Below, in pieces: positions 1,847 to 17,340 of a DNA stretch of 64,000 bases. Position 1 is the stretch's first letter. Each line of letters begins with the position of its first letter. The DNA lies in the NCBI GenBank assembly GCA_000146045.2, contig BK006939.2, forward strand, positions 320,001 to 384,000, read 5' to 3'. The position numbers and the translations under genes were made by a program. A model generated the notes under the pieces. It ran no database searches, had not been told where the DNA came from, and saw only the letters and a list, made by a program, of their open reading frames with translations. The stretch is from TPA_inf: Saccharomyces. Its lineage: Eukaryota.

Positions 1847-2125
1847 TCTATACTAAAAATGAAATATTTTTTTGTTTTCTTTACCTCATTCAACTGTATA
1901 GAACGTTATAACAAAATAATCAAGTTAAAACCCTTTTTTGTACACAATGGAATCTCTTCCATTTACTAATCAACTTAACAATGCTGGATTGGATATATTG
2001 ATAACGTTTTAAAAAGCGTTGCGTGATGTTTGGGTGCAATTGGCGGAAAAGCGGAACTTTCAAATTTACGATAGGTGGAGATACATCTCCACCTTTCTCC
2101 CCATTATCTTTGAATTTTCCTCAAA

Positions 2126-2133
2126 TATATAAA
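2126..2133 (+). promoter_or_regulatory. TATATAAA, candidate TATA box for the SRG1 ncRNA transcribed across the SER3 promoter
   Basis: Lies about 560 bp upstream of the SER3 ATG, consistent with the known SRG1-SER3 tandem arrangement. Confidence 0.4.
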
Positions 2134-2212
2134 GAGAACAACAAATCCATAGAAATGCCATTGTTTAATCCTGATTATCTACATTGTTTTAGTTTTTTAC
2201 TCACAATCGAGT

Positions 2213-2763
2213 AATGCCTTTGTTTGGCCAAGCTATGTGCAAATATCACAAATTAAAAATTTGGTTAAGCAGTTAGGCTGGACCTAATATTTTAGAAAAA
2301 CCTAATTTTTTTTGTGGACCCATTTTCGATATTTACTCACAAATGGAATTCAAGGGGAACAACTTCGGTCTCAGCACTTTAATTATTCTTCTCGTTCCCA
2401 CCTAATTTCGCAATTTATTGTCCTTGACTTCTACCACGAGAAAAAAATTAAGAAAATGCAACGCTGCCCGTGCAGGGTTTTCTGAGCGGGATGAAAAAAT
2501 CAGACAAATATCCAAGTTATGAGTAATTACTTTGTTGGAAGGAGGGAGCAGAGGATAAGGAAATTCTTAAAACTGTTATGTATATAAAGGAAGAACCATT
2601 TCTAGTTATTTCACTTTTTGATACTTGTCAACTATCTTAGTAAAAATACAGAACTCTATAAAGAACCACAGAAAAATCGACAGCAATGACAAGCATTGAC
2701 ATTAACAACTTACAAAATACCTTTCAACAAGCTATGAATATGAGCGGCTCCCCAGGCGCTGTT
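2213..2763 (+). ncRNA. SRG1: SRG1, the regulatory ncRNA whose transcription through the SER3 promoter represses SER3. Boundaries are approximate.
   Basis: The position relative to SER3 and the upstream TATA match the published SRG1 locus. No ORF lies in the interval except a 63-aa spurious one. Confidence 0.45.
2581..2588 (+). promoter_or_regulatory. TATATAAA, the SER3 core promoter TATA about 100 bp upstream of the ATG
   Basis: Sequence motif tatataaagg at 2581. Confidence 0.5.
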
Positions 2764-4095
2764 TGTACTTCACCTACGCAATCTTTCATGAATACCGTTC
2801 CACAGCGCTTGAATGCTGTAAAGCACCCAAAAATTTTGAAGCCTTTCTCAACGGGTGATATGAAGATTTTACTATTAGAAAACGTTAATCAAACTGCTAT
2901 TACAATCTTCGAAGAGCAAGGTTACCAAGTCGAATTCTATAAATCTTCATTGCCCGAGGAAGAGTTGATCGAAAAGATCAAGGACGTTCATGCTATTGGT
3001 ATCAGATCAAAGACTAGATTAACTTCAAATGTCTTACAACATGCGAAGAATCTGGTTTGTATTGGTTGTTTCTGTATCGGTACCAACCAAGTTGACTTAG
3101 ACTACGCTACCAGCAGAGGTATTGCTGTTTTCAACTCGCCTTTCTCCAACTCAAGATCAGTAGCAGAATTGGTCATCGCTGAAATCATTAGTTTAGCAAG
3201 ACAACTAGGTGATAGATCTATCGAATTACATACCGGTACATGGAATAAGGTTGCTGCTAGATGTTGGGAGGTAAGAGGAAAAACTCTTGGTATTATTGGG
3301 TACGGTCACATTGGTTCCCAATTATCAGTTCTTGCAGAAGCTATGGGTTTGCATGTGTTGTACTACGATATTGTAACTATCATGGCCTTGGGTACTGCCA
3401 GACAAGTTTCTACATTAGATGAATTGTTGAATAAATCTGATTTTGTGACACTACATGTACCAGCTACTCCTGAAACTGAAAAAATGTTATCTGCCCCACA
3501 ATTTGCTGCTATGAAGGATGGCGCTTATGTTATTAATGCTTCAAGAGGTACTGTCGTGGACATTCCATCTTTGATCCAAGCCGTGAAAGCCAACAAAATT
3601 GCAGGTGCTGCTTTGGATGTTTATCCACATGAACCAGCTAAGAACGGTGAAGGTTCATTTAACGATGAGCTAAATAGCTGGACTTCTGAATTAGTTTCAT
3701 TACCAAATATCATCTTGACACCACACATTGGTGGCTCTACCGAAGAAGCCCAAAGCTCAATCGGTATTGAAGTGGCTACCGCATTGTCCAAATACATCAA
3801 TGAAGGTAACTCTGTCGGTTCAGTCAACTTCCCAGAAGTGGCATTGAAATCATTGTCTTACGACCAAGAGAACACTGTGCGTGTGTTATACATTCACCAA
3901 AATGTACCAGGTGTTTTGAAGACCGTCAATGATATTTTATCGAACCATAACATCGAAAAGCAATTTTCCGATTCAAATGGTGAAATTGCTTATTTAATGG
4001 CTGATATCTCTTCTGTTGACCAAAGCGATATTAAAGATATTTATGAACAACTAAATCAAACCTCTGCTAAGATCTCAATTAGATTGCTATATTAA
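2686..4095 (+). CDS. SER3: D-3-phosphoglycerate dehydrogenase, 469 aa
   Basis: Full-length ORF with an NAD-binding GxGxxG motif (GIIGYGHIG) and a 2-hydroxyacid dehydrogenase catalytic domain. The neighbouring genes place it as SER3 rather than its paralogue SER33. Confidence 0.93.
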   Translation: MTSIDINNLQNTFQQAMNMSGSPGAVCTSPTQSFMNTVPQRLNAVKHPKILKPFSTGDMKILLLENVNQTAITIFEEQGYQVEFYKSSLPEEELIEKIKDVHAIGIRSKTRLTSNVLQHAKNLVCIGCFCIGTNQVDLDYATSRGIAVFNSPFSNSRSVAELVIAEIISLARQLGDRSIELHTGTWNKVAARCWEVRGKTLGIIGYGHIGSQLSVLAEAMGLHVLYYDIVTIMALGTARQVSTLDELLNKSDFVTLHVPATPETEKMLSAPQFAAMKDGAYVINASRGTVVDIPSLIQAVKANKIAGAALDVYPHEPAKNGEGSFNDELNSWTSELVSLPNIILTPHIGGSTEEAQSSIGIEVATALSKYINEGNSVGSVNFPEVALKSLSYDQENTVRVLYIHQNVPGVLKTVNDILSNHNIEKQFSDSNGEIAYLMADISSVDQSDIKDIYEQLNQTSAKISIRLLY

Positions 4096-4271: not shown

Positions 4272-5936
4272 TTAGCCGAATCTGCTCAATGCCTCTTCGA
4301 TGACATCCTTGTGGTCTTCTGAAATTAGGCCTTGTTTGATTTGGTGGTTTCTTTTACGAATATTTTTCTCCTTATCCAGTTGTTTCTGTACTCTTAATTT
4401 TCTTTCATCAATAACGTTTTGAGTCTTTTTACGCAAAAAGGAACGCAAACCCGAATTCTTACCTTTCACATCAGGTTTTACATCTGGAATGTCGCTGTTG
4501 GTTTTGGCTTTATTATTAGCATCCATTGTAGTTTGCGCCAAATCCTTAGCGTTTAACCTTATGGTAGAAGACCTTTTATCCACTGAACCGATGGAATTCG
4601 GATCTAAAGTAATTGTATCTGCTGGCAGTTTGTTCAATAGGGTTCTGACTTCCTGTTCCTGTCTTTGTTTTTTGGTTTCGAATGGGTTTAATTCTAAGGC
4701 ATCGTAATTGGCTTCACCTGCACCAGGTACAATCAAATTCGTAATACCCGTTTGATGGCCTACACCTAGTAAATCTTCAAATGGTACGAATCCCAAATTT
4801 TCTACTTTGTTTCCGGCAAACAAATGTGACATGTAAGGGGTGTTTCTATGTGGGTTCCCTCCCATGGACCCGAAGCACGGTTTACTGTCTCCACTTAATT
4901 TTAAAGCGTCCTTCCACAACGTAACGTGAGGGCCCCTAGATAATGCCAATAGACCAGTATCTGAAATGGAAACGTTTGTTCCTGGCGTCGGTAAGCTTTC
5001 CACAGAATGTAGTTGCTTGAAGTTTCTGATATCCCAAATTTTCATCGACCTATCAGCCCCTGTGGTTGCCATGTAATACCCGCTTCTATCGATAGCAATG
5101 CTGTTCACTGGTCCTCTGGCAGAAAGTAATTTTACTAATGGTTCAGGCATGGATGGTGACCAGAGGGATACTGTACCGTTTGAATGACCTAGATGCATCA
5201 CAGCATTCCATGGGTTTTGTGCCATTGCCATAGTTGGCCCAGCTTTGGTCCTCAATTCCGAGACCAACTGGCCAGTGGAAACATCGTGGTACTTCAACCA
5301 ACCTGTCTCACCGGCAGTTACGAGCAGGTAATGATATGGTAGAAAATCTAAATGTCTTGCCTCAATATGTTGTTTCAAACGATGTAATTCTGTACCTTCG
5401 TGATCATAAATAAATGTATATTTTTTTTGCGCTACAGCAAAGTATTGTTCGTTTTGCAAATATGTCGCTGAGTGACAGGTTTCATTCAAAAACAGCTCAG
5501 CACGAAGTTGTCCCTTTCTCCAGTCCATAGATGCTACGTGACCTTTGCGGCCAGTAATCAAAAGATGCGTACCGTTTTTTGCATATTTTATATGATAAGG
5601 GCCGAATTCCTTCAAAGATAAATCCAAAGCTTTGTTTGCAGTACTGACATCCACACTCGATTTGATTTCCGATTGTTGCACTTTGAAAGTCTTTTCTAGC
5701 TCATTCTCAGGTTCCAAATAACCATTGGACTCGGGTAAAAGGTAATCTGTTGCCGCAGCAGAAGATACCGCCTTTTTATATTGCTCGTCTATTTTTTTCA
5801 AGCCTGCTCTTAGTTTTTTATCCTTTGTTTGAGTATGATTATTTTTAGCATTATTAGTATATGTGGAACGTTCAAATTTATTCTGGTTTTCTCTTTCTTT
5901 TATCTGGCGTCTGTGACCGTTCTTCTTGTGACCCAT
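4272..5936 (-). CDS. UTP7: UTP7/KRE31, a WD40 SSU-processome protein, 554 aa
   Basis: 554-aa ORF with WD repeats and a basic N-terminus. A PAC plus RRPE pair lies in its promoter. Confidence 0.9.
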   Translation of the reverse strand: MGHKKNGHRRQIKERENQNKFERSTYTNNAKNNHTQTKDKKLRAGLKKIDEQYKKAVSSAAATDYLLPESNGYLEPENELEKTFKVQQSEIKSSVDVSTANKALDLSLKEFGPYHIKYAKNGTHLLITGRKGHVASMDWRKGQLRAELFLNETCHSATYLQNEQYFAVAQKKYTFIYDHEGTELHRLKQHIEARHLDFLPYHYLLVTAGETGWLKYHDVSTGQLVSELRTKAGPTMAMAQNPWNAVMHLGHSNGTVSLWSPSMPEPLVKLLSARGPVNSIAIDRSGYYMATTGADRSMKIWDIRNFKQLHSVESLPTPGTNVSISDTGLLALSRGPHVTLWKDALKLSGDSKPCFGSMGGNPHRNTPYMSHLFAGNKVENLGFVPFEDLLGVGHQTGITNLIVPGAGEANYDALELNPFETKKQRQEQEVRTLLNKLPADTITLDPNSIGSVDKRSSTIRLNAKDLAQTTMDANNKAKTNSDIPDVKPDVKGKNSGLRSFLRKKTQNVIDERKLRVQKQLDKEKNIRKRNHQIKQGLISEDHKDVIEEALSRFG

Positions 5937-13175: not shown

Positions 13176-15188
13176 TCACAGCATATCCTTGAAGATAGTG
13201 TTTATGCTTGGCAGCGGACTGTTGTTTGTGGTAGTAGTTGTAGAACTAGAGTGGTTTATCATGTTATTGGTGGTTTCGGTAGTGATGGATGTAGTTGTGG
13301 AAGAAGGCTTCGGTCTCGGAGTAATGGCTTCAGAACGAAAGTTGTTTAACAAAGCAATATCTTGCGGGTTTTTGGAATTAGGGGTGCGATTCATGGTTGC
13401 AGCCGAGGAGCTGGTATCGGAGGTTATGGTGCACCTAGAACCAGCATCAGAAGTATTCGATGAATCATCTGCGGGATCCGGTGAAAAGATCGGATCCGGT
13501 GAAACGTCTTTGGAGGATATGTTGGAACTGCTGGATGAAAAGACAGTCTTGTTACTGGATTGTTTAGCACGGTGCAGCGGGTCTACATTATCTTCGTCAT
13601 CATCGTTACTACCATCACCCATAACGTCCTCTTTGTCGCTACCTTTGTCATCATCAGTGGTAGAACCACTTTTGAACATTCTTGGACAAGTTTTCTTGGA
13701 CAGAGTTTTTTGAGGTGAATGTGTAGGAGACAACATATCCGCATCACTTGACAAGGCGTTTAATCTCCATTGAATTTCCACCTCAGTTCTCTGCGGCAAA
13801 AGAATGGATAGTTCCATAACGGATAGGTTTCTCTTTTTGTTTTCCATTAGCAAAGCGTCTTCATCTTTTGACCATAGATTAGTCGGATTACACGATGACT
13901 TCATAGAATGGCCAGAAAACGAACCTCGTTTAGACTTATGCAAAGTGGATGACGATGACACCGATGAAGAATGTGGGAGATCCATAAAGGTATAAGAGTT
14001 GGGGAAAATGGGCCCGTTGTTGGAGGTAGGACCTCCACTGTTACTTAAGTTGTTTAATCTTTGCTGAAATTCCTTCTTGATGACAGATTCCCTTCTTGAG
14101 TTGGTATTAGAAGTAGAAGCAGTGTTACTGCCGCTATTGTTGACATTGAATATGTTTGACACGGAATTTGGTGCAAGAATCATTGAAGACCGTCTTGAAG
14201 TGTTGTTACTTGAAACATTAAACGATGATCTTCTGGACCAATTCGCAAGCGAGCCCCTTCTTGACTTTGAGCTTAGTAAGACATGCGAAGAGTTTGGAGA
14301 AGACGGAGTAGTGGTTATTGCTACCTGTTGTGGATAGGCAAACGAACTTCTTCTGGATCTAACGAATACTTTAGGAATGAATCCATACTTCTCCTCATCA
14401 TTAGACCGAACGATGGGGTCTTGGTTCAAAGAATTGGTGAAGGAGTGAGAGTTTGACCTTGGCTTTAGAGTCTTATGATGGGGATGGTGGTGTAGGTGTT
14501 GATGAGGATGATGAGGGAGTGCGGCCGGCAGCGTGGGAGGAGCGAACGGCATGGAAGAAGCAGCGTTTGAGACAATCGTAGTGGGAGTCACATTGGACGG
14601 AGATTGAGAAAATGACATCGATGCGTGAAACGAAGGCAACGAGGTCTTTCTGGAGGGAATCGGGATGGATGACGTTGTAGTGAACTCAGCAGTATCTTCC
14701 GTTAATACGTTTTCTTCTACCTTCTTGCTGGGCTTTTGCTGAGCGTTGGCAGTCTCATCGCCGTGGGTGATCTTGAGTGGGCCCGTATAGGTGTTGATGT
14801 CGATCAAAGCAGTCTTGTTCGACTTCAAGTTACCAGACTTCAACCTTCTCCATCTGAACTGACACGCGTTAGGAGTCCTGTTTGGGAAGTATTGCGAAAT
14901 ATCCTTCCAGCCCATTTTCTTGACCTCCTTTAAATGACGTAGCAGCAGATCATCTTGAGGGTCCCAAGAGGAAGGGTTCTTGCTCGAATTCTTGGAAGAC
15001 GCAGATGCCGATGCCGAAGTCGACGATGAAGAGGAAGCTGGCAGAGAGGGCGAAGATTCCTGGGCTTCGTTCTTGGACATAGCTGTTGACGACGAGTGTG
15101 GCTGACGAGTGAGTGAGTGTAGCTGAGGATGGGTGTCCATGCTGCTCAAATGAATGGAAGCTGAGTTCAAACTGGTTGAAATGGACAT
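13176..15188 (-). CDS. DOT6: DOT6, a Myb-like PAC-motif-binding repressor of ribosome-biogenesis genes, 670 aa
   Basis: The 731-aa ORF-track product carries a 61-codon spurious N-terminal extension, and the true start is MSISTSLNSA. It has a SANT/Myb region (WDPQDDLLLRHL...) and Ser-rich low complexity. Confidence 0.85.
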   Translation of the reverse strand: MSISTSLNSASIHLSSMDTHPQLHSLTRQPHSSSTAMSKNEAQESSPSLPASSSSSTSASASASSKNSSKNPSSWDPQDDLLLRHLKEVKKMGWKDISQYFPNRTPNACQFRWRRLKSGNLKSNKTALIDINTYTGPLKITHGDETANAQQKPSKKVEENVLTEDTAEFTTTSSIPIPSRKTSLPSFHASMSFSQSPSNVTPTTIVSNAASSMPFAPPTLPAALPHHPHQHLHHHPHHKTLKPRSNSHSFTNSLNQDPIVRSNDEEKYGFIPKVFVRSRRSSFAYPQQVAITTTPSSPNSSHVLLSSKSRRGSLANWSRRSSFNVSSNNTSRRSSMILAPNSVSNIFNVNNSGSNTASTSNTNSRRESVIKKEFQQRLNNLSNSGGPTSNNGPIFPNSYTFMDLPHSSSVSSSSTLHKSKRGSFSGHSMKSSCNPTNLWSKDEDALLMENKKRNLSVMELSILLPQRTEVEIQWRLNALSSDADMLSPTHSPQKTLSKKTCPRMFKSGSTTDDDKGSDKEDVMGDGSNDDDEDNVDPLHRAKQSSNKTVFSSSSSNISSKDVSPDPIFSPDPADDSSNTSDAGSRCTITSDTSSSAATMNRTPNSKNPQDIALLNNFRSEAITPRPKPSSTTTSITTETTNNMINHSSSTTTTTNNSPLPSINTIFKDML

Positions 15189-15945
15189 CACGGAGCAGAG
15201 AAGGGAGGGAAGACTGGAACGTGCACGGAAGCTATTCGATGAGGTCGGATGAACTGACTGTGAAAAGGAGGAAACACGGATAAATATACTACAAAAGAGA
15301 GAAAAAATACAACAAGATACCAAACAGGACGAAAGAGAGAAGAAATAGAGAAGATGCAAAGAAAAGAACACTTTTCAAAACCTGTCCCTGTTTTTGTTGT
15401 ACTCGGTTTTTTTCCTTTTTAAACTGTGTGCACTTTCTGATTCCGTCTTGTCGAGGCTGTCGGAGAAAAGAGTAGCACACACGACGATAACAATAGATAC
15501 GGTAGATTGGATGGGGCACAGATGTGCAAGGCAATGCGCGAATCCTGTCTACGATGTCTGTACCGTCCATCCTTTCTCCTTTGCATCGGAAACATCCGCG
15601 CTGTCTACCTTAGGAGGACCTCATGGGACGGGCGCTGGGGACTCGTGCCCATCCGGGACTGGGGGTGAGATTTCACAACGGGGCCGCTGCTGGTCTCACC
15701 CTCTGGCCGGGCCGGTCCGTTTTTGTGGCGTCGCTGCAGGTAAACGCGCAGTTTCTGCGCGTTTACCCCTGAGGTGAATACCATCTTCAAGCGTCAAACT
15801 GCATCCGGATATCCTGCTGTTGGTAGCGATGGTGGTGGTAGTGGTGTATGCTCTTGGTTCTGGTGGTGTCTTGCGTCTTCTCTTCTCTTTCTGTTCGTTC
15901 GGTTCGTATATAGGTATGTATATATAATGAAGGATGGAAGATCCT

Positions 15946-17340
15946 TCATTGCAAGTGGGAACGGCCGGCCTTGTGGTCAGTGTTACTGTCATTCTCGGGA
16001 TGGGAGGAAGCCGGGTCATGGCCCATGGTTTGGAGCAGTTGGGCCAAGGCAGACTGGGGAAGAGTGTAGGTGACTTTGTTCCCGTTGCTGTCTGTCTTCA
16101 CTCCTCCTGTAGCACCAAGTAGCGCCTCCAAGGATGCTAGATCAATGGGGCCGGAGGTCTTGCTCTTGGATTGGCTGGAAGGGTCAAGATTTTCTGCATC
16201 TGTGTCAGCGTCCGTGTCGTCTATGTCCATTGGATCGTCGTTATCGGCGGCAGTCACCGAGGCCACAGCGGCTTCGTGGTCGCGAGTGAATTTGTCCTGA
16301 GGTTTCTTCGTAGTGATAGCGAACACCTGTTCGTCGTTACATTTGGAAAAATCGTAGTAACTAAACACCCTTCTTCTCTTGTCTGCAAAAGAACGCACTG
16401 ATGTGCGGTGGGCCTTGGACTTCATACGGTCGCTCCATTGAGCGACGTCTTCACCTTCTTTCAGCAGCGCGACAACCACTATACTCATGTTGTCGCATCC
16501 AATACCCGTCCCCTCTGTGGTGGGAGCACAACAGACATCGATGATCCGCGAAGAAATTTCATTCAATGTCTTGCCTTCGCGAAGGCCGAGATGAACCAAG
16601 TCCACACAATCTTGGGAAGTCAAACAATCCCAGATACCATCACAGGCTAAGATTACAAACTCGTCCCTATCGTAATCTAGAGAATGCTCGAGAATGTCCG
16701 GAACACATGTCACTATTTGCTCCTCGGGGCCCAATTTGGGGTTGGATTTGAACTCAAAATCACCAATGGCACGAGAGAGCGCCAAGTTACCGTTGACCCT
16801 ATCCATTTCTACGAAGCCATCAGCTGCCACAATACGTGATTTTTCGCTTGCTAGAGTGGGCTTGTGATCGTATGATAATGCCTTTGCGTTCCCGTCGGTG
16901 GCGAGTACGGTTCTACTGTCACCAGCGTTACCACATACTAACAAGTTCTGGGACTTTGATACTAATATGGATGTAGCCGTACATCCGCTATGGTCTTCTT
17001 TCATCACAGGATCTTGTAACAGTTTCACGTCTGTGTTTATGAAAGTATCAATCAAAGCCCTTGGTAAATTTCCTTCATGGAACGATTTCTGCTCTTGCAG
17101 GATCTCCACTATTTTATTACCACAGTATTCTGCTACTTTAGCGCCACCATGACCATCGAATATACCGTAAAATGCAATATGGTCCTTATCGGACTTTGTC
17201 AAAACATTAGGCTCTAGAATGTGTGAATCCTCCATTGACATCCGCCACCCTTGCATTGCACACAGTCCAAACGCGGTCAAGGAGTCAGCACCGGAGTGGC
17301 TCTCTTTATCAATTACCGGGTTTGATAGAATTTGTCCCAT
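15946..17340 (-). CDS. PTC2: PP2C-type protein phosphatase, 464 aa
   Basis: N-terminal MGQILS, PP2C catalytic motifs (GxFDGHGG, DGxWD) and an acidic C-terminal tail. Confidence 0.93.

Follow-up and report, generated by a model that had tools for sequence, protein, structure and literature searches.

The DNA analyzed here, referred to as the window, is a stretch of 64 kb from S. cerevisiae that contains the 757-bp intergenic region between PTC2 and DOT6. The A of the DOT6 ATG is located at position 15188, and a TATA-like element is found at approximately -75 to -110 relative to this start codon. A preliminary description of the sequence had noted a GC-rich island of about 200 bp in this region, and the GC maximum of the window is indeed found there, at 15576-15775, with a value of 0.63 versus a mean of 0.39 for the entire 64 kb. 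Across 15500-15800, 200-bp windows peak at a GC content of 0.59-0.615, and the runner-up 200-bp windows in the 64 kb are coding sequence with a GC content of 0.58 or less. The positions of the coding sequences further confirm that the island is upstream of DOT6 and 3' of PTC2, as originally suggested. With the PTC2 stop codon on its other side, it lies 400-600 bp 5' of the DOT6 ATG, and the order of genes at the locus is the same in six Saccharomyces genomes. A tRNA/tmRNA scan returned no candidates. The promoter of the paralogue TOD6 in S. mikatae is without a GC island and instead has PAC (GATGAG) and RRPE-like repeats. A literature search with both locus names and the term 'intergenic' yielded no report specific to the PTC2-DOT6 spacer.

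Three open reading frames traverse or adjoin the island (Table 1). All of them exist as given in the preliminary description, where they were judged unlikely to be genes, and the analysis bears out this assessment; conservation is lacking for all three. YER088C-A, dubious according to the literature, is intact in S. cerevisiae alone; in all five other species its frame is closed after 5-25 codons (24-25 codons in the S. paradoxus-like genome, S. mikatae and S. kudriavzevii), and an ATG is missing in S. kudriavzevii, S. uvarum and S. eubayanus. SAGE tags have been assigned to YER088C-A, and the PTC2 3' UTR could be an alternative source of these tags. A Pfam scan of the three reading frames gave nothing above threshold.

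Table 1. Genes, reading frames and sequence elements in and around the PTC2-DOT6 intergenic region, numbered from the first position of the window.
Feature	Position	Strand	Remarks
DOT6 coding sequence	13176..15188	-	gene with the island in its upstream region
Chance ORF, 127 aa, TTG start	15394..15777	+	traverses GC-rich DNA
Proximal conserved promoter block, including CCGTATCTATTGTTATCGTC and AGGATTCGCGCATTGCCTTGCGCATC	15483..15589	-	0.83-0.96 identity across the genus
GC-rich island	15576..15775		GC 0.63, top 200-bp window of the whole 64 kb
Fast-evolving, indel-rich core	15590..15707		identity to S. uvarum and S. eubayanus only 0.44
YER088C-A, dubious ORF, 107 aa	15696..16019	-	open only in S. 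cerevisiae
Conserved block CCGGCCCGGCCAGA	15702..15715	-	CGG- and GGCC-rich
Near-invariant block CTGCA(G)CGACGCCACAAAA	15721..15739	-	18 of 19 positions invariant
Perfect inverted repeat GGTAAACGCGCAG-TTT-CTGCGCGTTTACC	15739..15767		13-bp arms, 3-nt loop
Left-arm CGCGC core	15745..15749	+	inner GCGC (15746-15749) invariant in six species
Loop TTT (AAA in DOT6 sense)	15752..15754	+	inverted in both S. mikatae-type sequences
Right-arm CGCGC core	15757..15761	-	inner GCGC (15757-15760) invariant in six species
TTTA, derived 4-nt cluster	15762..15765	+	CGCG in S. kudriavzevii, S. uvarum and S. eubayanus
8-mer CAGGGGTA	15764..15771	-	contains the stress-response element; invariant in 6/6 Saccharomyces genomes
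Stress-response element CCCCT (AGGGG in DOT6 sense)	15766..15770	+	-578 to -582 from the DOT6 ATG
Chance ORF, 99 aa, GTG start	15774..16073	+	antisense to the PTC2 3' end
Invariant block GATGCAGTTTG	15795..15805	-	distal edge of the conserved region
PTC2 coding sequence	15946..17340	-	upstream neighbour, 3' end toward the island

The comparison comprised S. cerevisiae, an S. paradoxus-like genome, S. mikatae, S. kudriavzevii, S. uvarum and S. eubayanus. Within this set, the block at 15708-15805 shows an identity of 0.76-0.96 to the other species, versus 0.63-0.88 over the whole intergenic region. The sequences CAGGGGTA, CGACGCCACAAAA and GATGCAGTTTG are invariant in all six genomes, as are both GCGC cores of the palindrome. 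The CCGGCCCGGCCAGA block presumably resembles the sites of Skn7 or of zinc-cluster factors, and among the consensus sequences of Reb1, Mig1, Fkh, Ppr1 and Rim101, none is known to be both exactly matched and conserved. A search for the conserved blocks in N. dairenensis, K. naganishii, T. globosa and the TOD6 promoter, with up to 20% mismatch permitted, did not produce a match, and sequence conservation therefore ends at the genus.

The S. cerevisiae intergenic region contains a single perfect AGGGG/CCCCT sequence, the stress-response element (STRE) CCCCT, which shares two nucleotides with the end of the right arm of the palindrome. The enclosing 8-mer is found at -561 to -684 across the six Saccharomyces genomes. 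Note that this STRE, the element with published support, was overlooked in the preliminary description. Its coordinate agrees with that of the one perfect Msn2 site reported for the DOT6 promoter "at -580 bp" (Kocik et al. 2026). As evidenced by the same study, Msn2 and Msn4 occupy the DOT6 promoter under stress and are required to sustain DOT6 mRNA and Dot6 protein, and DOT6 mRNA was reduced in msn2 msn4 deletion cells; ChIP signals of Msn2/Msn4 at this promoter are cited there from five studies. Binding of Msn2/4 could not be ablated by the authors because Msn2 can reach the promoter without its DNA-binding domain. The main text of Elfving et al. (2014) makes no mention of DOT6.

The summit of Msn2/4 binding would be expected to fall within the island. 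With the STREs recognized by Msn2/Msn4 the element at DOT6 has in common the exact core motif, the location in a promoter and the conservation throughout the genus, and it fits the published occupancy and the Msn2/4-dependence of DOT6 mRNA. It is different in several respects. DOT6 has one perfect copy far upstream, whereas strongly induced stress genes typically carry proximal STRE clusters. Msn2/4 maintain the mRNA of DOT6 without strong induction, and the need for the -580 element in DOT6 regulation is unproven, even in published work, with Msn2 able to arrive independently of its DNA-binding domain. A distance of 580 bp from the ATG is also rather far for a yeast upstream activating sequence, and this counts against the explanation that we consider best, namely that the island serves DOT6 as a distal upstream regulatory region.

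The palindrome that adjoins the STRE had been described as a perfect inverted repeat GTAAACGCGCAG-TTT-CTGCGCGTTTAC with arms of 12 bp. It is present, and it is in fact longer by one base per arm, with the two arms at 15739-15751 and 15755-15767 being 100% complementary. No other perfect inverted repeat with a short loop reaches this length in the window, where a mean of 0.03 repeats with 13-bp arms and a loop of up to 10 nt is expected from dinucleotide-preserving shuffles. For a single window it is thus a rare find, although, by extrapolation, a few such repeats should arise by chance in a 12-Mb genome. Folding of the single-stranded DNA of the palindrome yielded -16.2 kcal/mol, with a z score of -5.2, and a second copy of the arm was not found elsewhere in the window. 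Polymorphism among strains, which the preliminary description took to speak against a function, was not observed, as the palindrome is identical in 12 S. cerevisiae loci and 4 metagenome contigs. A metagenome scan with the pattern of invariant positions, aimed at species such as S. arboricola and S. jurei, returned only these 4 contigs, all of them identical to S. cerevisiae. Conservation beyond S. cerevisiae is limited for the palindrome as such. No more than three of the six Saccharomyces genomes have it in perfect form (S. cerevisiae, the S. paradoxus-like genome and S. mikatae), and in the other three, S. kudriavzevii, S. uvarum and S. eubayanus, pairing is confined to the inner GCGC. The unchanged arms in the former three could reflect selection on the palindrome itself, a question for which 26 nt provide a test of low power.

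The distribution of the palindrome comes with a distinct pattern of substitutions. In the three genomes with perfect arms, positions 15762-15765 read TTTA and pair with TAAA of the other arm, and each of the four adjacent derived substitutions, CGCG to TTTA, creates complementarity to that arm. The direction of this change is suggested by parsimony over six genomes only, with S. arboricola and S. jurei not among them. In addition, the 3-nt spacer, read in DOT6 sense, is TTT in the two S. mikatae-type sequences (L002 and L007) versus AAA in the others, and perfect palindromes of independent origin, with arms of 13 bp and 12 bp, are found in S. eubayanus at other places of the same intergenic region. 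The four-base cluster, the flipped loop of S. mikatae and the palindromes of S. eubayanus indicate template switching during replication, a process for which both the homogenisation of arms and the inversion of spacers have been documented in the S. cerevisiae lineage (Abraham and Hazkani-Covo 2021). The likeness to the repeats of that study is that an imperfect outgroup repeat was perfected by one cluster of adjacent substitutions; here the arms measure 13 bp, the spacer 3 nt, and the spacer was inverted in one descendant lineage. The published survey dealt with coding sequences and with differences between strains, whereas the present palindrome is a promoter feature that is fixed between species and shares bases with the site of a transcription factor. 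The hairpin thus looks like a recent copying accident and not like a conserved structure of RNA or DNA.

Both lines of evidence are joined in the explanation that we hold to be probable, namely that the distal upstream region of DOT6 contains an Msn2/4 element and that the perfect hairpin beside it is a functionless product of template switching. Msn2/4 would bind to the CCCCT element, possibly assisted by the conserved CGCGC cores, which are candidate sites for Rsc3/Rsc30 and RSC, and by the flanking conserved blocks. Binding would sustain the transcription of DOT6, and Dot6 would in turn repress ribosome-biogenesis genes. The perfect 13-bp hairpin presumably has no function of its own. It may date back to the ancestor shared by S. 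cerevisiae, S. paradoxus and S. mikatae, in which an older CGCG-rich repeat with imperfect arms would have received a copy of its left arm through a template switch during replication, CGCG being converted to TTTA, and the loop of S. mikatae would have been flipped later by the same mechanism. Apart from the placement of the stress site and the example of template switching, the locus is ordinary promoter DNA.

The preliminary description had proposed that the palindrome might be a site for a transcription factor or chromatin remodeller, either of the Rsc3-like CGCGC type or an MCB-like half site. The proposal was right in kind, and Rsc3/Rsc30 are possible ligands because the GCGC/CGCGC cores of the arms are kept in all six Saccharomyces genomes. 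The MCB reading does not hold, as S. cerevisiae has ACGCGC and GCGCGT in place of ACGCGT, and a perfect ACGCGT occurs in S. eubayanus only. Rsc3 and Rsc30 bind CGCGCG-type motifs and contribute to nucleosome-depleted regions, and the CGCG palindrome might mainly serve to recruit RSC through them and to exclude nucleosomes from the 3' end of PTC2 and from the DOT6 promoter, with the adjacent STRE being secondary. We consider such a primary role unlikely, although it is compatible with the explanation favored above. The two inverted CGCGC cores in a GC-rich promoter patch, one on each arm, do resemble the known motif, at least one CGCGC is retained at this position in six of six species, and S. 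kudriavzevii and S. uvarum even show (CG)n runs there. Nevertheless, the hexamer CGCGCG itself is missing in S. cerevisiae, where CGCGCA and GCGCGT are found instead, the left core is degenerate (TGCGC) in both S. uvarum and S. eubayanus, and the candidate site is located some 560-575 bp from the ATG, far from a core promoter whose TATA-like element is near the gene.

The composition of the island poses a separate question. Its GC richness, in particular that of the variable core, might not be required for any function and might result from a mutational bias, for instance from GC-biased gene conversion at a promoter hotspot of recombination that has been conserved, a view that we find improbable as an account of the island. 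Nowhere in the intergenic region is conservation lower than in the core at 15590-15707, and the anchor-bounded interval containing this core nevertheless retains a GC content of 0.61-0.74 in every species. At the equivalent position N. dairenensis has an island with a GC content of 0.70 in a locus of 0.34, without any shared sequence blocks. GGGG/CCCC, CGG/CCG, GGCC and CpG in the island were not significantly enriched relative to shuffles in any species; with no k-mer enriched beyond base composition, a cluster of weak sites therefore does not explain the GC richness of the core. The region has also repeatedly gained palindromes and repeats. All this is in line with a mutational bias, but sequence constraint is clear in the parts of the island that flank the core, and a bias accounts for the composition and not for the conserved motifs. 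A different interpretation of the same composition, quite improbable in our estimate, is that after the whole-genome duplication the DOT6 copy lost its TatD neighbour and gained a GC-rich module whose composition, not sequence, was kept across Saccharomyces and Naumovozyma. Such a module could be a nucleosome-favouring or non-B DNA 'gate' beside the STRE, to which the hairpin-prone CGCG element would belong. This hypothetical gate would render DOT6 dependent on Msn2/4 and thereby wire the induction of stress genes to the repression of ribosome biogenesis.

An action of the island through a non-B shape, be it a cruciform formed by the palindrome or a plus-strand G-quadruplex around 15625-15711, is very unlikely. 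S. cerevisiae, S. mikatae, S. uvarum, S. eubayanus and N. dairenensis all have runs of at least four G3 tracts on the antisense strand of DOT6, but such G runs are expected at a GC content of 65-70%, the motifs of S. cerevisiae and S. mikatae require loops of more than 12 nt and were found only at the limit of 25 nt, and the S. paradoxus-like genome and S. kudriavzevii have no motif at all. The palindrome, with 29 bp, is short for cruciform extrusion in vivo.

The remaining suggestion of the preliminary description, that the hairpin is the stem of a structured RNA, fails. Whether placed in a non-coding RNA, in a 3' UTR or terminator element of PTC2 or in a long 5' leader of DOT6, such a stem has only a minute probability. 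In the S. cerevisiae sequence alone the likeness to conserved RNA hairpins is evident, with an RNA hairpin of -22 to -24 kcal/mol and z scores of -2.7 (plus strand) and -2.6 (minus strand) for folding of the 241-nt island. Conservation of the structure is what is lacking. Perfect pairing is restricted to three species; S. kudriavzevii, S. uvarum and S. eubayanus lack four of the 13 pairs, all of them A-T, three in the outer stem and one adjacent to the loop. DNA folding of the orthologous segments gave z scores of +0.7, +0.3 and -1.0, versus the strongly negative value of S. cerevisiae. The covariation score was 0.138 versus 0.123 in shuffles, with 169 of 500 shuffles reaching the observed value and one double change present. 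An Rfam scan of 15000-16200 on both strands at E ≤ 10 produced only chance matches to bacterial families, the best with E = 1 and 20.7 bits versus a gathering score of 45. Moreover, the inversion of the loop and the change in the arm are events at the level of DNA, and the hairpin would be located some 80-100 nt past the likely poly(A) signals of PTC2 (TATATA and A-rich elements at about 15860-15925).

We practically dismiss the notion that the island is a decayed TatD-nuclease gene from before the whole-genome duplication or encodes a small protein in YER088C-A or the plus-strand frames: a TatD gene does lie between the PTC2/PTC3 and DOT6/TOD6 orthologues in T. globosa and at the TOD6 locus of S. 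mikatae and is absent at the DOT6 locus, and the reading frames are long for intergenic DNA, but a tblastn search with the T. globosa TatD protein against nine intergenic regions gave a best E value of 0.6, the indels are not multiples of three, and the loss of the YER088C-A frame in the relatives and the Pfam result speak against a protein.

The published '-580' Msn2 site of the DOT6 promoter is now placed inside a sequence block that is invariant throughout the genus. The layout of the region allows the role of the stress-response element to be separated from those of the palindrome and the CGCG cores, a design that is useful because Msn2/4 binding at this site could not be ablated in the published work (Kocik et al. 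2026). At the same time the locus adds a non-coding case between species in which template switching makes a perfect hairpin and then flips it, and it is a reminder that a structural function does not follow from the presence of a perfect palindrome beside a conserved motif.

The GC-rich stretch that the preliminary description had placed at 15580-15790, upstream of DOT6 and 3' of PTC2, is present in the sequence as described. Sliding windows of 200 bp across this interval reach a GC content of 0.59-0.615, and the island at 15576-15775, with 0.63 against a mean of 0.39, is the top 200-bp window of the 64 kb; all remaining top-GC windows are coding sequence and do not exceed 0.58. Its location agrees with the identities of the flanking open reading frames as listed in the table. 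As both are encoded on the minus strand, the spacer comprises the 3' end of PTC2 and the promoter of DOT6, with the island at 400-600 bp upstream of the DOT6 start codon. Note that the DOT6 frame is open for 61 codons beyond the ATG (15189-15371, minus strand), back to a GTG at 15371, and that automatic gene calls in public assemblies, such as the 718-aa P0001, run into this segment; the extension is probably an artefact.

Features of the PTC2-DOT6 region and of related loci
Feature	Locus	Position	Strand	Description
DOT6	window	13176-15188	minus	product a Myb-domain protein, closest relatives named Dot6p
PTC2	window	15946-17340	minus	PP2C phosphatase, identical to S. cerevisiae Ptc2p
PTC2-DOT6 spacer	window	15189-15945		757 bp
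Proximal block	window	15483-15589		identity 0.83-0.96 across the genus
Core	window	15590-15707		least conserved part of the spacer; identity 0.44 to S. uvarum and S. eubayanus
Distal block	window	15708-15805		identity 0.96, 0.92, 0.89, 0.79 and 0.76 to the five species
CGCGC, left arm	window	15745-15749	plus	
CGCGC, right arm	window	15757-15761	minus	
YER088C-A	window	15696-16019	minus	open in S. cerevisiae only
Palindrome in species-specific insertion	S. eubayanus (L006)	3460-3489		GGCAACAGCCGGG-CTGC-CCCGGCTGTTGCC; 13-bp arms, 4-nt loop
Second palindrome	S. eubayanus (L006)	3810-3837		ACAAACACACGT-CAGA-ACGTGTGTTTGT; 12-bp arms
TatD-nuclease gene	T. globosa (L020)	4316-5545		
TatD-nuclease gene	S. 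mikatae TOD6 locus (L023)	2009-3265		

The inverted repeat, previously described with 12-bp arms, is perfect and one base longer on each arm, with GGTAAACGCGCAG (15739-15751) and CTGCGCGTTTACC (15755-15767) flanking a TTT loop. It exceeds every other perfect short-loop palindrome of the window in length, and its occurrence is surprising for a single window, since dinucleotide-preserving shuffles of the window yield a mean of only 0.03 such repeats (arms of 13 bp, loop of at most 10 nt); by simple extrapolation, a 12-Mb genome would hold a handful of them by chance. Folding of the element as single-stranded DNA gives -16.2 kcal/mol (z = -5.2), and this single perfect stem is apparently the main source of the moderately low values for the entire island folded as RNA (z = -2.7 and -2.6 for the two strands). 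Polymorphism of the palindrome among strains, raised as a possible objection, was not observed: the loci of 12 S. cerevisiae strains, two of them with the PTC2 allele named for strain HN1, share the same 29-bp sequence, which is also unchanged in four metagenome contigs. Strain SNPs fall mostly into the variable core (15604, 15632, 15655, 15661, 15668, 15687 and 15695), and one is found at 15771. A second perfect palindrome, AATGAAGGAT-CTTCC-ATCCTTCATT with 10-bp arms (15926-15950), extends across the PTC2 stop codon at 15946-15948.

The best-supported functional part of the island is a stress-response element that the preliminary description overlooked. CAGGGGTA comes before the palindrome in the DOT6 sense and gives, on the plus strand, a CCCCT at 15766-15770 that overlaps the end of the right arm by two bases and stops immediately before the SNP at 15771. 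The hairpin thus directly adjoins the one canonical element of the region, the sole perfect AGGGG/CCCCT of the S. cerevisiae spacer, at -578 to -582 from the ATG, and an AGGGG in the same orientation is found in all six species between -561 and -684. In a recent study the single perfect Msn2 site of the DOT6 promoter was placed at -580 bp, binding of Msn2 and Msn4 to this promoter after several stresses was documented with five ChIP studies, and deletion of msn2 and msn4 lowered DOT6 mRNA and Dot6 protein and impaired repression of Dot6 targets (Kocik et al. 2026). Position and published data together therefore make the island the probable Msn2/4-bound region upstream of DOT6. Note that binding at the -580 element could not be ablated, as Msn2 can reach the promoter without its DNA-binding domain (Kocik et al. 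2026), so that any requirement for the site is putative.

Much closer to the gene, at 15237-15243 (about -50 to -55 from the ATG), all six Saccharomyces genomes carry a PAC-like GATGAG (CGATGAG on the plus strand, CTCATCG in the DOT6 sense). Dot6 and Tod6 bind sites of this kind, and the motif hints at auto- or cross-regulation. The reported Dot6-dependent cluster contains TOD6, not DOT6 (Kocik et al. 2026).

We further aligned the syntenic TRP2-PTC2-DOT6-SBH1 loci of a S. paradoxus-like genome (a Logan assembly with a putative species label, its DOT6 90% identical), S. mikatae, S. kudriavzevii, S. uvarum and S. eubayanus, those of S. mikatae and S. kudriavzevii each from two sources. The island is divided into three parts, and the distal block, which holds the palindrome, can be compared to a whole-spacer identity of 0.88 down to 0.63. 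Its invariant stretches are GATGCAGTTTG, CAGGGGTA, two GCGC cores, CTGCA.CGACGCCACAAAA and CCGG.CCG. The core is rich in indels and lineage-specific repeats, but the anchor-bounded interval that holds it maintains a GC content of 0.61-0.74 in all species. No k-mers in the core were enriched beyond base composition, and G-quadruplex motifs are patchy across species; its GC richness may stem from nucleosome affinity, from the turnover of weak sites or from biased gene conversion at a promoter hotspot. At 15583-15600, S. cerevisiae has CGCGGATGTTTCCGATGC, a CGG-N6-CCG resembling a zinc-cluster factor site; its place is taken in S. uvarum and S. eubayanus by CACGTGTAT..CCGATGC with a CACGTG E-box, and the difference may reflect binding-site turnover beside the invariant CCGATGC. 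Closer to DOT6, a 39-bp deletion polymorphism in the CT-rich promoter or leader (15304-15342) occurs in two of 10 aligned S. cerevisiae loci (L014 and L016), and the S. mikatae promoter carries a species-specific (GT)n microsatellite insertion (L002, around 3700-3740, alignment columns around 645-680).

The conservation is thus that of flanking and inner motifs, kept in all six genomes, but not of the hairpin itself. RSC, in line with the Rsc3-like site of the preliminary description, would be one reader of the CGCG cores, as its subunits Rsc3 and Rsc30 recognise CGCGCG-type sequences and aid formation of nucleosome-depleted regions. CGCGC is present on both arms and at least one copy is retained at this position in every species; S. 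cerevisiae, however, lacks the CGCGCG hexamer, and S. uvarum and S. eubayanus carry a degenerate left core. The CGCG cores are possible candidate sites with a helper function. A structured RNA fares worse. Conserved are the left arm (DOT6 sense) and the inner GCGC of the right arm, but the outer right arm, TTTACC, is restricted to S. cerevisiae, the S. paradoxus-like genome and S. mikatae, with CGCGCC in S. kudriavzevii and S. uvarum and CGCGTC in S. eubayanus. Among the 13 stem pairs in six genomes, four are each broken in three species and there is one isolated double change. Covariation over these pairs (0.138 versus 0.123 in shuffles) was matched or exceeded by 169 of 500 shuffles, the orthologous segments fold as single-stranded DNA no more stably than shuffled sequence (z = +0.7 in S. 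kudriavzevii, +0.3 in S. uvarum and -1.0 in S. eubayanus), and searches for Rfam families and tRNA-like genes returned no match. A conserved structured RNA is therefore unsupported. The proposed MCB half-site fails on its sequence, ACGCGC rather than ACGCGT.

Three overlapping stop-free reading frames had been noted and judged unlikely to be genes; all are present, and the judgement holds. None of the three has a Pfam match above threshold. YER088C-A is considered dubious in the literature and used there as an example of a de novo ORF. In the S. paradoxus-like genome, S. mikatae and S. kudriavzevii a stop cuts its frame short at 24-25 codons, and its ATG is absent from S. kudriavzevii, S. uvarum and S. 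eubayanus. Of the interpretations first offered, that of a regulatory site rather than a gene stands, but not those of a structured RNA or an MCB element.

The hairpin itself most likely arose by template switching and serves no function of its own. CGCG is found in S. kudriavzevii and in the S. uvarum/S. eubayanus pair and TTTA in the other three species, so that by parsimony a single change occurred on the branch to S. cerevisiae, S. paradoxus and S. mikatae. It comprises four adjacent substitutions (CGCG to TTTA, 15762-15765), each of which allows a further Watson-Crick pair with the TAAA in the opposite arm. The loop, moreover, is exactly inverted (AAA to TTT) in both S. mikatae-type sequences, with the arms unaltered. 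For the S. cerevisiae lineage, DNA-polymerase template switching at short inverted repeats has two documented signatures, arm homogenisation and spacer inversion, and published cases include flips of 3-nt spacers whose flanking arms measure at least about 10 bp (Abraham and Hazkani-Covo 2021, PMC8604942). The palindrome shows both. S. eubayanus has two further perfect palindromes elsewhere in the spacer that occur in no other species, and the one with 13-bp arms folds at -18.3 kcal/mol (z = -6.0). Long imperfect TGCAG/TGCAC repeats are found in the same locus at 3383-3436. In the simplest reading, GC-rich, CGCG-containing spacer DNA would be prone to template-switch events, and the S. cerevisiae hairpin would be a mutational product overlaid on conserved binding sites.

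Outside the genus, in N. dairenensis, K. naganishii and T. globosa, none of the conserved blocks was recovered. In the pre-duplication species T. globosa and at the S. mikatae PTC3-TOD6 locus, a TatD-nuclease gene separates the phosphatase from the DOT6/TOD6 gene, and the upstream regions of these loci have no GC island (200-bp maximum 0.49); that of S. mikatae TOD6, the DOT6 paralogue, has PAC (GATGAG) repeats together with an RRPE-like motif, that of T. globosa three CTCATC motifs. The TatD gene is lost from the DOT6 locus of Saccharomyces, K. naganishii and N. dairenensis, and no remnant was detectable in the Saccharomyces spacers. The DOT6-locus island is clearest in N. dairenensis (0.70 versus 0.34 for the locus), with a peak of merely 0.595 versus 0.46 in K. 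naganishii. In N. dairenensis it is annotated as a 176-aa Arg/Pro-rich ORF between PTC2 and DOT6 (L018 5060-5590) that belongs to no Pfam family and probably represents a spurious gene call. Island and hairpin are a further example of already known kinds of feature, and the contrast between the DOT6 and TOD6 upstream regions fits the reported divergence of the paralogues, with TOD6 repressed alongside the ribosome-biogenesis genes and DOT6 maintained by Msn2/4 (Kocik et al. 2026).
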